Shown: piece after piece, positions 7,620 through 24,887 of the stretch | Layout: every line of letters starts with the position of its first letter | How positions within the stretch are numbered: the first letter of the stretch is position 1 | Translations under genes and position numbers: made by a program | Notes under the pieces: model-generated | The model's input: only the letters and a program-made list of their open reading frames with translations | Told to the model about the DNA's origin: nothing | Databases searched by the model: none | Origin: a virus | Taxonomy: Duplodnaviria; Caudoviricetes | Length of the DNA: 64,000 nucleotides | Virus record (IMG/VR): IMGVR_UViG_3300028591_000014 | Location: 1-64,000 of that record | Direction: 5' to 3' (one strand)

Positions 7620-7648
7620 TCCGTACAACAATCAACATCCAACTCTAA

Positions 7649-7930
7649 GAGCCTATTAGAGCCAGTGAGTAAAACAACCATAAGTCCTCAAAGGTGACCA
7701 TTGTGAGTCGAACTGTTGGCAGGTTTGGTACATGAATTAACATGTCGAACAAGAGCCTATTAGAGCCAGTTCGGGTGTTGAGCTTCGAGTTCACGAAGTA
7801 AACTATGAACACATTCAGATCAAATTGTTATATCTGAGCCTACTAGAGCCGATTCGAAAGGAGGAGTACCATAGAATCATATAATATATCAAGAATGTTG
7901 ATAACATACTTACAAGAGCCTATTAGAGCC
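7649..7930 (+). repeat. Array of four GAGCCTA(T/C)TAGAGCC direct repeats
   Basis: Copies at 7649, 7753, 7836 and 7916 separated by unrelated 65-89-nt spacers. Confidence 0.85.
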
Positions 7931-8186
7931 AGTAAGACACTGTTATGTTGAAGACTAAAATAAGGCTTTCTGAGACGTTTTTAGAGCTTAAGTGGATCAG
8001 CTACCCACTAGAGTAAAGAAAACGCGTCAGAGAGCCTGTAAATAGCCTTAAATCGAATGTTTTGACTGATCATCACTACATTCACTACTGGATACCTATA
8101 GTCGTATATTTATTCGATGAAATGTCAAAGGTATCCATCTCTCATTGAAATCTTAGCGGTCTGAGTTAATCTGTTCGGACGGCGGT

Positions 8187-9026
8187 TGATATACGAGCCG
8201 CATTATAATTGGGTGAATTCAAGGAAGACTAAACATAATAAAGGCTCAAAGCCAACATTGTGCATGTTAACCCTGAGCCAAGCATAGAGTACACTCTATG
8301 AAGGTGCAACGACTACTGGAGGAGTATAGTCTCCTTAATTACCAGCTTGAGCGCCCAACATCTCATTTTGAGATGAAGAGATAGTCTCATCTTCACAGAA
8401 ATGTGAAGTGTAGGAAGAAATTAATTTAAGATATTGTTTAGTCTCTAAATCAGACATTGTAGATTTCATAAAGTTTATTGGGGTAGAAACAAACTGTACA
8501 TTTCCTACAACATATCCTTTTGAAGAATCTATTCTGTCTAATGATGCACGACACCATAATTGTTCACAATTTCCTTTCTTATTCCAAGTAGGAAGATACA
8601 GTTTTAAACCTGTGTATGGACAAATACCGTTTTGTTGCTCCCAAATCTGTTTGAGATCTTTAAGAGTGAGATTAAATTCTTTAAAACGCTTTTTGGCGTT
8701 TCTAAAAGAATATCTAAAAGGTGTCCACTCATCTTTATGATTCTGACAATAATTCTTAATATTTTGTTGTGCTTTTAATTGTGCTTCTGTAGGGATGTCT
8801 TTATATAAGTTACACCTATATGTAGCAGAACAAGCTCTACAACAAAAATTCTTTCTACCTAATTTAATGTTCCGATTATATTCGGAAAGAGGCTTTTGAG
8901 CTTCTTTACCACAATTATCGCAAATAAACGTTACCAAACGTCTATTCTGCATATACTTCTTTTGTTCTTCCATACATATATAACGTGGAGGCAGAAGGAA
9001 TGGTTGCGTTAAACTAGAAGATTTTG
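8187..9026 (+). mobile_element. Group I intron (840 nt) in the tmRNA T-loop
   Basis: P1 GCGGT/GCCGC with U.G at the 5' splice site; P/Q/R/S-like elements AATTCAAGGAA, AACCCTGAGCCAAG, GTGCAACGACTA, AAGAGATAGTCT; terminal G at 9026. Confidence 0.9.
8335..8973 (-). CDS. Intron-encoded His-Me finger (HNH-like) homing endonuclease, antisense to the intron
   Basis: Zn ribbon CDNCGK...FCCRAC plus CPYTG...SLDRIDSSKGYVVGNVQFV...INFMK; likely start at Met31 of the listed ORF. Confidence 0.8.
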   Translation of the reverse strand: MEEQKKYMQNRRLVTFICDNCGKEAQKPLSEYNRNIKLGRKNFCCRACSATYRCNLYKDIPTEAQLKAQQNIKNYCQNHKDEWTPFRYSFRNAKKRFKEFNLTLKDLKQIWEQQNGICPYTGLKLYLPTWNKKGNCEQLWCRASLDRIDSSKGYVVGNVQFVSTPINFMKSTMSDLETKQYLKLISSYTSHFCEDETISSSQNEMLGAQAGN

Positions 9027-9131
9027 TCGATTCCGCCCAGGTCCACTTTGACAGATACCGCAATCTGACAATTCTGCGATGGTAAACAAACGGCTATGTT
9101 CACCACGTACGCCCTCATAAGAGGGCATTTT

Positions 9132-9269
9132 GGGCCTGACTGGATTAGACGGGCAGAGGAAGTAAAGGCATTAACGCTTTGATAATAATAACTGGCAATA
9201 TTAACATTGCAGACTATACGGGCCTCAAGGAGGCAGCGTAAAGTCCGTGCAGGCTACGAAAGTGCCTAA
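9132..9269 (+). ncRNA. ssrA: Permuted tmRNA, coding piece; tag (A)GNINIADYTGLKEAA
   Basis: 5' GGGCCTGACTGGATTAGACGGG pairs with CAGGTCC including G3.U70; ATAACT-GGC resume context; tag frame 9194-9241 ends AA-TAA. Confidence 0.9.
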
Positions 9270-9329
9270 GAGTGTAGAACAATGGATCTCCTTGCGAGTG
9301 CTGGTTCGACGCCAGCCTACACTCCACCA
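9270..9329 (+). ncRNA. Miniature tRNA-like RNA ending CCACCA
   Basis: GAGTGTAG/CTACACTC stem, T-arm GCTGG-TTCGACG-CCAGC, no D-stem, only a 3-bp middle stem. Confidence 0.7.
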
Positions 9330-13556: not shown

Positions 13557-15600
13557 GGATTCACTGCTGGTCCAGCCTAGGGCAATCCGCTTAGTTCCAC
13601 GTCAACAGTCTCATTAGCTGGGAACGAAATCATTTACTTGATCCGAGAATATGTATACCTGTCTCCGCAGGTTGAGATATCAAAAGGTAGGATGGAAGAC
13701 ATATAAGTGTGAAAAGCTTACGTGTATTAGGGAGAGCGTTTATTCAACCCTATTCTGGTCCCTGAGAACCGTCTGGTGAGGGCAGTCAAGAGAAGACGCA
13801 CACAAGTTGTAAACGAATACGTATCGGACATGCAGCCTTTCGAGAGAAACATAGAGGTTCTGTATAACGTAACACGAGTTGAACAGTATAGTACGCCAAA
13901 AACTATGCTGATGTTTCATTTGCTTAGCCTAGTGTCACTGGTCTCCAAAACCAGCATTGAGGGGTGAAAACTATCTGAGCATAATACCAAGTAGATGGGT
14001 TATAATATCTACGCCGTACCGTAACTACGGTCCTTGAAGAAATCCTTTCAGTTTCGATTACTGAATGACCATCTTTGAGGCTACGGTCCCACTGGGTCAC
14101 CGGGGATGGGGTACTGAGGAAAATGTGATGAAGATGACCGCCAGGCTTTGGTCGTTTATGCGGTATATAAAAGTAAAATGACTAGCAGCTCGATGCAGGA
14201 GCTGAAGGGTTAAAAGCCCGCCATACCACTAAGGATGGTCGCGATGCGAGTCCGCGTTCAAAGACTGACATAACTTTAGTAGAGCCCTTTAGCAAGGTAA
14301 TCGCTATAGAATTGCAACTACGTAAAGAAGAAATGCTGCGTAGTAGATGGTTCCTTGACAGCCAAACAATTGCAGGAAAAAAGGTGGTCGATTCGAAGAC
14401 TATACATCCAGTATAGAGGGAGATCGCTGCCTAGTTAAGGTAAAAAATAATATGGTGTTCACCTATGTTACTTTAAGTATCAACCCTGGGGAGTAGTAAA
14501 CCTAAAGGAGATAATGATGTATCGTACTCTGAACTAGATAGCCATATGAAGATATACTGATAACTAAACAACAAAAAAGAGTTAATTAACATGTATAATA
14601 AAATTGATGTCCCTTGGCTGGGAGAAAATAATGTTGTATATCAACGAAAGACTCCGTTTGTAATGTATGTGAGTGCTTTCACGCCAAGAAGTCGAGTGCC
14701 AACCGTTCCTGAGAAGCAAATTGACAAGATGAATCCAGTTTGAATATGTGACGGCAAATCCATATGATCGGCTGAGACCATGAAGTCATATACATTTAAT
14801 CGATGGGCAGCCATATCGTAGCCACAAGTTTTACAGTTACACACTGAAATATCAGTGTAGGTACATCACTATCTCCTGTCTCGAGATGTGTGATAAGCAA
14901 GATATGGTGGGTGACAAGAAGCGATGTATGAGGTGGAATTCCTCCAGTATTCGCGCACTATAAACAGAAGACAGCAGTAAAGCTGAATGCACAACAAAAA
15001 ACCGTAGGGTCTGAGAAGAGTTATGGAGCTCTGAGACTGTCCGATAAAGAAACGTACTCCTTACGTAGAAACACGCAATTGTCGAAAACAGGAAACAAGC
15101 ACGTTCACGATGCTGTTAGGCTTGAGAAATAATCAGAATCGTTGTGAGTATTCTTAGTGTACTTGGAAAATGCATTAACAAGGATATTTCACTAAAACTT
15201 TTGCGGAAAACCCTATGAACATTAGTCGTTGAAATTCTGTCTTGAACACTAGTCAACGAAATTTTGTCAACGGGCAATTAAGATGTCGGCTTAACTGTCG
15301 ATAAATGTTTAACGAATAATTAACATATGCTTAGTATAAGTTTGGTATTTGGATATACCCATTCAGCGTTTAAAGTTTTAGGAACCATTGATGATGATGA
15401 GCATGGATGATCTTACCGTTAGATCCTCGTTATACGAGTTGAGCTTCATTTAAAGGAATATAGAAGTATAACTAATCGTCAATGAAAACGTGCTTCCCGT
15501 AAGCACAGCAACTGAAGAGAGAACTTTATAGGCAACATAACGATACCGAGAGCCTACTAGAGCCAGTGTATTTTCAATTTACATGGCAACGCCCGAGCCG
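13557..15600 (+). ncRNA. Candidate large structured ncRNA region (~2 kb)
   Basis: No convincing ORF; many hairpins, T-loop-like stems and an embedded tRNA-Trp-like arm; strand inferred from flanking genes. Confidence 0.5.
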
Positions 15601-24275: not shown

Positions 24276-24887
24276 ATGTATAGTACAAAAACAGCAACAA
24301 CAAACAATCAGGAGTTTACAAGCTCCTATATGCCCGTAGGTATTAACGAAAACGTAAAACTTAAGGAAGTTAACGTAAACAAAACAGCTCAAGGTCGTGA
24401 TTTCCTTGAGATTGTATTTGTTAACGCAGATGGTCAGACGGCAACTATGACTGAGTGGAAGAACGAGAAAAACATGTGGATTAAGACTGATGAAGAACTT
24501 CAGCAGCGTGATAATCAGCAGTTTGGTCGTATTTTACAAGTTATAGATGCTATTAATGGAAAGCACGATGAGTTTGAAGGAAACTCGTTTACAGAAATGA
24601 TAAACTGGGTTAAGAACGAGCTTGAGGTTATCCAGCTGGCAACTCCGTTGCGCCTTAAGGTTGTTTACGACAAGAAGGGTTATACGAAAGTTAGCTCTCT
24701 TGGTATATTTGTTGAACCTATGAGTGTAGAACAGTCTCAGATTAAGCTTTGGAAGAACGATCTTCTGGAGCGTCCTATTGTAGCCGATAAAGAACCTGCT
24801 ACAGATCCGCTTGCTGGTCAGGCAATGTCTGACTTTAGTACTCCGGTAACTGAGACTAATAAAGGTGCTGACGACCTGCCCTTTTAA
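24276..24887 (+). CDS. Putative single-stranded DNA-binding protein
   Basis: Follows the Sak4-like gene; acidic tail ending DDLPF. Confidence 0.7.
   Translation: MYSTKTATTNNQEFTSSYMPVGINENVKLKEVNVNKTAQGRDFLEIVFVNADGQTATMTEWKNEKNMWIKTDEELQQRDNQQFGRILQVIDAINGKHDEFEGNSFTEMINWVKNELEVIQLATPLRLKVVYDKKGYTKVSSLGIFVEPMSVEQSQIKLWKNDLLERPIVADKEPATDPLAGQAMSDFSTPVTETNKGADDLPF

Follow-up and report, generated by a model that had tools for sequence, protein, structure and literature searches.

A probable mobile group I intron carrying an antisense PacI-like nuclease gene in the permuted tmRNA of a crAss-like phage

Transfer-messenger RNA (tmRNA) frees stalled ribosomes and is the main ribosome-rescue RNA of bacteria. 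Here we analyzed a phage-encoded tmRNA gene located in positions 1 to 64,000 of the IMG/VR record IMGVR_UViG_3300028591_000014 (this stretch of 64,000 nucleotides (nts) is called the window), where positions 8187-9026 form a group I intron with an open reading frame (ORF) for a putative homing endonuclease on the opposite strand. The record is a complete genome of 102,956 bases with terminal repeats and belongs to a crAss-like phage, whose replication genes are about 75% identical to those of the crAss-like phages cr272_1 and cr273_1 (Suoliviridae, Oafivirinae). Its DNA is present in gut runs from sheep, goat and cattle and was found in several independent gut samples. The relatives used for comparison were RefSeq crAss-like phages (names in cr) and IMG/VR contigs (loci in L).

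Group I introns in tmRNA genes have been catalogued as the intron form of tmRNA, with Clostridium botulinum as the founding case and 883 sequences in which the intron occupies subsite 2, 3, 7 or 8 of the T-psi-C loop (PMC11915505). In that catalogue the genes are of standard, permuted or intron form and a permuted-plus-intron class is absent; the endonuclease genes, 36 among the 883, are all LAGLIDADG, the introns never exceed 700 bp, and the cases at subsite 2 come from Anaerolineae and one Myxococcota (PMC11915505). The window element resembles this form in being a P7.1-bearing group I intron in the T-loop at subsite 2, in its U-1 and terminal-G rules, and in that its removal rebuilds the loop. 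Unlike it, the window gene is a permuted phage tmRNA and does not have the one-piece standard gene order of the intron-form class, the intron is 840 nts long, and its nuclease is an antisense PacI-like His-Me finger. On the other hand, the gene shares with the permuted tmRNAs of Alpha- and Betaproteobacteria, Cyanobacteria and the phages cr272_1 and cr273_1 the order of acceptor piece, spacer and coding piece, the G3·U70 pair and a similar tag, and differs from them in that its acceptor piece is split by the intron.

Homing endonuclease genes placed antisense to the intron are described in group I introns of nuclear ribosomal DNA (rDNA), for example at position L2066 (PMC9548176). As in the window, the gene there runs opposite to an intron within an untranslated structural-RNA gene, and because of this arrangement both would need a promoter of their own; the L2066-type genes, however, belong to eukaryotes, are of the His-Cys box type and rely on RNA polymerase II for expression, and some of them have spliceosomal introns (PMC9548176). 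A bacterial or phage antisense intron endonuclease was not found described in the literature compared. As for the protein, the PacI group (group 20 of the His-Me finger superfamily) lacks the catalytic His and uses a Tyr of the omega-loop (PMC5714182). PacI (3ldy) is the best structural match of the window protein, with all of PacI covered, the His likewise absent, a Tyr conserved in the loop between the two strands and a dimer predicted; unlike PacI, the window protein is intron-borne and not a restriction enzyme, has an extra N-terminal zinc finger, and shows only 16-23% identity and no match at the sequence level. Each part is of a known kind, and the combination of two-piece tmRNA, phage and backwards PacI-like nuclease is absent from the tmRNA catalogue (PMC11915505). 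Taken as a whole, the locus is very probably best explained as a mobile IA-type group I intron in a permuted crAss-like phage tmRNA, accompanied by an antisense homing nuclease.

When the intact window was searched, no tmRNA was called by ARAGORN or Rfam. After 8187-9026 had been removed by script, ARAGORN called a permuted tmRNA, and the same was observed after intron removal in 9 other distinct viral contigs; the introns at position 2 all lie in permuted tmRNA genes. The parts of the window gene are as follows.

8116-8186, plus strand: exon 1, the 5′ part of the acceptor piece (ARAGORN, intron removed; the 5′ boundary is an ARAGORN estimate only)
8187-9026, plus strand: group I intron, 840 nts, at T-loop subsite 2, between T and TCGATT (Rfam, exon junction, ARAGORN)
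9027-9045, plus strand: exon 2, with the rest of the T-loop (UCGAUU), T-stem CCGCC, acceptor CAGGUCC and discriminator A9045
9132-9269, plus strand: tmRNA coding piece (ARAGORN)

Exon 1 ends with GGAC, the 5′ strand of the T-stem GGCGG (8181-8185) and the first T-loop base U8186, so that ligation of 8186 to 9027 produces the canonical T-arm GGCGG-UUCGAUU-CCGCC. CCA is not encoded after A9045. The 5′ acceptor strand of the coding piece, GGGCCUG (9132-9138), pairs with CAGGUCC (9038-9044) to yield G3·U70, and this pairing covaries, being GGGCGUG/CACGUCC in cr273_1 and L013. The tag frame (9194-9241) encodes GNINIADYTGLKEAA followed by a stop, and the tag ends in AA. In cr272_1 and cr273_1 an intron-less permuted tmRNA is annotated with a near-identical tag (GNINVVDYTGLQEAA in cr273_1). 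The Rfam model tmRNA_permuted (RF04321) scored 46.2 bits on the intron-less cr273_1 gene against a cut-off of 47, and gave no match in the intron-split window. A group I intron in a tmRNA T-loop, as proposed in the sequence-only reading, is thus borne out by Rfam, by the rebuilt T-arm and by the ARAGORN call after intron removal, with the correction that the tmRNA is the permuted two-piece form and that the intron lies in its acceptor piece.

The Rfam search that had been suggested as a check gave a clear match: Intron_gpI (RF00028) aligned over its full model (1-253) with the plus strand at 8153-8408, with 83.6 bits against a gathering score of 50 (E 9e-21). P2 is absent, the ORF is placed downstream of P9, and the last base is G9026, followed by UCGAUUCCGCC; the same boundaries are found in L006-L013 and L031. 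The helices are the following.

8182-8201, plus strand: P1 hairpin, in which exon G8182-U8186 pairs with the guide G8197-C8201 (read by eye)
8209-8408, plus strand: ribozyme core (helix map, covariation count, Rfam alignment)
8209-15/8352-58, plus strand: P3
8219-24/8271-76, plus strand: P4
8227-29/8266-68, plus strand: P5
8234-39/8257-62, plus strand: P5a
8243-46/8250-53, plus strand: P5b
8277-79/8303-05, plus strand: P6
8283-89/8294-8300, plus strand: P6a
8311-15/8382-86, plus strand: P7
8316-24/8331-45, plus strand: P7.1
8360-65/8369-74, plus strand: P8
8391-97/8402-08, plus strand: P9 with a GAAA loop

The details on which the sequence-only reading had been built, namely a U8186·G8197 pair in P1 at the 5′ splice site, a P10-compatible CGA, P/Q/R/S-like core elements and a terminal G, all held. 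The U·G pair and the terminal G (G9026, the final intron base) recur in 10 relatives. The CGA is present at C8194-G8195-A8196 and could form three base pairs with U9027-C9028-G9029. The P1 guide tracks the T-stem of the host gene (GGCGGU/GCCGC, GAGGGU/GCUCUC and UGGGU/GCCCA, with five different T-stems in total), which matches the requirement for a working 5′ splice site; this comparison was made by eye, and P1, which was misaligned by MAFFT, was excluded from the covariation count. For the core, 15 related introns were aligned, the helices were written from the window sequence and pairs were then counted. Standard pairs occupied 95.6% of the pair cells, compared with 33-44% when the partners were slid, and 24 of the 63 pairs showed two-sided changes, values reached by none of 500 shuffles. 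Compensatory changes fell mostly in P3, P5a, P6a, P8 and P9, whereas P7 was invariant and therefore uninformative. Together with the Rfam match, this upholds the P3-P9 core. The extra helix at 8316-8345, between the 5′ strand of P7 and P3′, marks the intron as IA type, as judged from the sequence.

On the minus strand, the ORF of the sequence-only reading is open, with 212 amino acids (aa), and its 3′ end runs into the core.

8973 to 8335, minus strand: antisense endonuclease ORF, 212 aa from the ATG at 8973
8335-8408, 74 nts, no single strand: overlap of ORF and ribozyme, with the last 24 codons (residues 189-212) and the stop

The true start is likely Met8 (ATG 8952-8950), because many homologues begin there, which would give a protein of about 205 aa. 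We found 642 homologues, many of them on contigs of about 100 kb. In the body of the gene (codons 8-186), the ratio of nonsynonymous to synonymous substitution rates (dN/dS) was 0.13-0.38 against six relatives, and the protein matched the PHROG families endonuclease (2e-23), HNH (5e-16) and endonuclease VII (9e-16). These values and the fold described below indicate that the antisense endonuclease gene is real and under purifying selection. The N-terminus carries a CxxC...CxxC zinc finger of FCS/MYM-like type, and an invariant motif, ASLDRIDSSKGY..GNVQF..PIN.MK, lies in the PacI-like His-Me finger. In the AlphaFold2 model (mean predicted local distance difference test (pLDDT) 78.6), an N-terminal zinc-ribbon region and a beta-beta-alpha unit were seen, the latter with strands 142-147 and 159-163 and helix 164-172, corresponding to the beta-beta-alpha-metal fold. 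The top fold match was PacI 3ldy (Foldseek E 0.011, probability 1.0; VIA Z 7.1, root-mean-square deviation 4.0, 109/142 aligned, where VIA Z values of this kind lie in the range attainable from common arrangements), followed by many HNH domains of Cas9, Gme, McrA and Cap5. The assignment as a nuclease is therefore based on the Foldseek probability, the run of HNH matches and the PHROG matches taken together. Searches of the PDB by sequence, with the single protein and with a profile, gave only weak zinc-finger and Cas9-HNH rows (E > 0.01), and Pfam found no LAGLIDADG domain in the protein. The enzyme falls outside the classical homing-endonuclease families; it is a His-Me finger of PacI-like type that lacks the catalytic His.

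The nuclease is probably a homodimer, as judged from its model. The interaction prediction score from aligned errors (ipSAE) was 0.66 against 0.02 for the best control, contacts agreed by at least 57% between runs and the partner pLDDT was at least 76; the ipSAE mark used here was attained for 20 of 30 solved homo-pairs and for 1 of 23 single chains. As PacI has been solved as a dimer, this pass may reflect the likeness to it.

In the sequence-only reading, the ORF had been described as overlapping S and P9. The overlap is real, but it is wider than that, since the 3′ side of P7.1, P3′, P8 and P7′ are covered as well: it extends from the 3′ end of the inner P7.1 stem (U8335) through the P7.1 internal loop and outer 3′ strand, P3′, P8 and P7′ to P9. 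The ORF ends with the stop codon TTA (8335-8337), whose U8335 is the closing base of the inner P7.1 stem and whose other two bases, 8336-8337, fall within the internal loop of P7.1, which is invariant. Past residue 190, pLDDT drops to 52-30. Tail dS ranged from 0 to 0.06 among position-2 relatives and was higher (0.36-0.44) in L002 and L060, which are position-3 relatives; tail dN/dS was 0.7-9, compared with 0.13-0.38 in the body. The canonical Pfam HNH protein of cr55_1, with an unrelated catalytic domain, ends in the same ...TISSPSNEGLGALAGN tail, while in position-3 introns a stop in J7/9 terminates the protein about 20 codons earlier. From the disorder, the low dS, the tail shared with cr55_1 and the earlier stop in position-3 introns, we conclude that the tail, mostly disordered in the model, is shaped by the ribozyme and does not serve as a functional part of the protein. 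The first few overlapped codons may nevertheless belong to the last helix, which is located in the predicted dimer interface. The overlap is best read as a read-through tail, with translation continuing to the invariant UAA in the P7.1 region.

The T-loop site is found in several states among the relatives. It is intron-less in cr272_1 and cr273_1, and full introns are present in five different T-stems (window, L006-L011 and L031). In L012 and L032 the intron has a shortened or broken ORF, and L013 has an ORF-less intron of 273 nts with a remnant of the ORF 3′ end. All ORF-bearing introns examined have the ORF in antisense orientation. Homing into the T-loop is supported by presence, absence and decay at one T-loop site, and the proposal that the intron-less tmRNA T-loop is the likely homing site is sustained by the intron-less alleles, the ORF-less L013 and the single insertion point in five T-stems. 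Two apparent T-loop contexts, L034 and L040, were false products of the regular expression and were discarded; a 16-mer scan of viral contigs gave 49 loci, mostly chance matches in unrelated, often GC-rich phage genes.

'Collaborative homing' involves a free-standing endonuclease beside its target, as in the psbA intron of cyanophage S-PM2 with F-CphI. A comparable state is found in cr56_1 (L005, 1919-2494 and about 1937-2600), which has a free-standing antisense homologue of the nuclease (53% identity by tblastn) beside the T-arm and without a ribozyme, unlike the window gene, which is inside the intron. This homologue sits in the spacer of a permuted tmRNA gene, between acceptor and coding piece, as read by eye; its 3′ end crosses the T-arm, whose loop has 8 nts (TATCGTAT) with an extra base at the insertion point of the window intron. 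On cr6_1 and cr56_1 as they stand ARAGORN called no tmRNA, and these loci were read by eye only. The cr56_1 state suggests that nuclease and ribozyme were joined secondarily.

Judging from the anatomy of the locus and from the comparison with relatives, splicing and processing would proceed as follows. The tmRNA precursor would be transcribed from the plus strand and 8187-9026 removed by the ribozyme, guanosine attacking at U8186·G8197 and G9026 leaving in the second step, so that the T-loop is restored. Processing of the tRNA type would then split the acceptor piece (to A9045, with CCA added later) from the coding piece (from G9132), and the two pieces would pair to form an alanine-accepting tRNA-like domain. 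From the minus strand, a zinc-finger and PacI-like nuclease of about 205 aa would be made, its gene lying between P9 and the 3′ splice site. Most likely it has its own promoter in the 3′ end of the intron, which would uncouple its expression from the untranslated tmRNA precursor. The nuclease would most likely cut the near-palindromic T-arm DNA of intron-less alleles in co-infecting relatives, and repair from the intron-bearing copy would spread the intron, that is, homing.

Several observations weigh against this account, and they are given here together with the alternatives on which they bear. The first concerns expression. The neighbouring genes are all on the plus strand and the ORF is the sole minus-strand gene in the block; for this reason we infer that it needs its own promoter, for which the 3′ end of the intron is a plausible place. 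The candidate signals are the following.

8975-8982, minus strand: candidate -7 promoter element TATATATG, with 5/6 of TAnnTTTG, upstream of Met8
8279-8243, minus strand: terminator-like hairpin and T-run, about 56 nts past the ORF stop, the complement of P4-P5b

TAnnTTTG is the Bacteroidota-type -7 consensus known from the Bacteroides promoter literature. Among the minus-strand upstream regions compared, it is exact in L002 (TAACTTTG) and L059 (TAATTTTG), and in the window it is imperfect. A scan for sigma-70-type promoters found 8 sites against 6.0 ± 2.7 in shuffles, no excess, by a model that does not represent Bacteroidota or phage promoters. The hairpin at 8279-8243 could end the antisense mRNA.

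The antisense layout itself might be regulatory, in that the minus-strand transcript pairs with the intron-bearing precursor and lowers splicing and tmRNA maturation, a repression proposed in the sequence-only reading, or, conversely, tmRNA transcription silences the nuclease. Over 8335-8408 the ORF and the ribozyme show full complementarity, the complementarity of the mRNA to the precursor would exceed 600 nts, and the relatives all keep the antisense orientation, with two nuclease types. Even so we consider such a role unlikely. The contigs carry no strand and give no strand-resolved support for repression; moreover, the orientation is perhaps kept because a gene in an untranslated structured RNA needs its own promoter and start, and it may be simply inherited, since the free-standing homologue in cr56_1 has the same orientation without an intron.

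Less probable still is that the antisense protein has ceased to be a nuclease and serves as a sequence-specific DNA- or RNA-binder, such as a regulator, a helper in splicing or a host-takeover factor resembling Srd, in an intron that has lost its mobility. At the position of the canonical HNH catalytic His, Arg147 is found in 17 of the 17 aligned members; Pfam and NCBIfam gave no nuclease family for the protein, and further PHROG matches were to 'Srd anti-sigma factor' (4e-14) and 'decoy of host sigma70' (1e-6). However, His-Me fingers of the PacI group are active without the His (PMC5714182), and the window protein has an invariant Tyr154 in the corresponding loop between the two strands, whose equivalence to the Tyr of PacI we infer from its place in the fold and not from a residue-by-residue alignment. 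D146-R147 and the metal-site residues N158 and N167 are invariant too, the presence, absence and decay of intron and ORF at one site follow the pattern of a homing cycle, and in sister introns a canonical Pfam HNH (2e-13) replaces the protein in the same place and orientation. These points favor an active homing nuclease.

With regard to splicing, the RNA data are assembled contigs without strand, in which depth cannot rank parts. One contig of the sheep-gut metatranscriptome X3 joins ...GGACGGCGGT / ...GGACGGCGGU straight to 9027, the predicted ligated junction; it is assembled and strand-less, comes from a slightly different strain, and has only 17 letters on the 5′ side and a variant first base. 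Instead of spliced RNA, it could represent a relative whose DNA has the intron-less allele. None of the assembled contigs spans 8186/9027 with 31 letters on each side, and RNA libraries also hold unspliced intron contigs. P10 is just 3 bp, its CGA being kept only in the window, L009 and L011-L013, and splicing and DNA cleavage by the window element are deduced from sequence. Two further joints, 8073>9027 and 9046>9189, were rejected as splicing, as they also occur in a DNA run and belong to contigs of related phages. That the insertion is a dead relic, whose ribozyme no longer splices and whose tmRNA gene is a pseudogene, could be argued from the weak P10 and the unspliced contigs, and is nevertheless highly improbable, because the core helices are all intact and covarying, the P1 guide fits the phage's own T-stem, U-1, the terminal G, the acceptor G3·U70 and the tag frame ending in AA are all preserved, and the genome is complete and recurs in independent gut samples.

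A mobile intron with an antisense homing nuclease, which we prefer, has several consequences. The phage tmRNA would need two maturation routes, ribozyme splicing and then two-piece assembly. The series from the intron-less gene through free-standing nuclease, full intron and decayed ORF to the ORF-less intron would allow a mobile intron to be followed from its birth to its decay in uncultured gut phages. The proteins would represent an uncharacterised branch of His-less PacI-like nucleases, probably recognising the tRNA-like T-arm sequence and possibly useful as rare cutters, and the window element would parallel, in a prokaryotic setting, the antisense endonuclease genes of nuclear rDNA introns.

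Related cores, with 68-78% identity by BLASTN, were found at other subsites, namely 3 (cr128_1 and cr6_1), 7 (cr55_1) and 8 (cr4_1), and a matching P1 pairing can be written for the cores at all three. Position-3 introns lie in one-piece tmRNA genes in cr128_1, L059 and L060, whereas the subsite 7 core (L063, cr55_1, about 1814-2560) is in a permuted tmRNA; the subsite 8 core is at about 1751-2520 of L064 (cr4_1). The introns of cr55_1 and cr4_1 carry an antisense canonical HNH gene (PF01844, 2e-13) in the place and orientation of the window ORF, and these HNH proteins share with the window protein the zinc finger and the ribozyme-encoded C-terminal tail. It is conceivable, though we hold the idea only tentatively and rather doubt it, that one ribozyme lineage has moved among four T-loop subsites (2, 3, 7 and 8) and between one- and two-piece genes, always with a backwards nuclease and with two catalytic types. 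If this were true, the subsites would not be independent invasions, and mobile introns would have been built up starting from the state of cr56_1, where a free-standing antisense nuclease lies next to the T-arm. A dimeric nuclease would read the T-arm DNA as a palindrome, explaining the mirror-image subsite pairs 2/7 and 1/8, and a part could be played by antisense control linking the nuclease mRNA with the tmRNA precursor.

Further elements were observed around the tmRNA gene. Right after the coding piece, 9270-9329 forms a tRNA-like mini-helix, in which the acceptor-like stem has 8 bp (GAGUGUAG/CUACACUC), the T-arm reads GCUGG-UUCGACG-CCAGC and the final ...CCACCA is encoded; the element at this position in cr273_1 matched the Rfam tRNA model with 53.6 bits. 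The mini-helix may be a processing signal for the 3′ end of the coding piece. A hairpin at 9111-9131, GCCCUC-AUAA-GAGGGC followed by AUUUU, abuts the first G of the coding piece (9132) and could be a terminator-like or processing structure in the spacer of the permuted gene.

The stretch 7994-8096, which precedes the acceptor piece, is conserved in relatives and is represented by very deep contigs in RNA and DNA runs (up to about 1250 in the sheep-gut metatranscriptome X2). It may belong to the tmRNA precursor or be a small RNA of its own. The motif AGAGCCTAnTAGAGCC has 7 copies in the window, all on the plus strand, against 0.06 expected, located within 7647-7936 and also at 15549, 24260 and 28807. 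Four copies, spaced by 80-104 nts, lie just upstream of the tmRNA gene, and contigs of related strains skip units of about 100 nts at this array; another copy stops one base short of the ORF start at 24276. Outside the window, at 70973-71203 and 71515-71773 (minus strand) of the same genome (G000:C1), there are weak Intron_gpI matches of 42.4 and 25.3 bits, both below the cut-off. Finally, the Rfam motifs RAGATH-7-assoc, RAGATH-9 and RAGATH-20 were found well above their cut-offs just upstream of phage tmRNA T-arms, at 1793-1914 in cr6_1 (L004) and at 778-935 and 1582-1679 in cr56_1, and it is possible that these orphan motifs form part of tmRNA genes of crAss-like phages or lie next to them.

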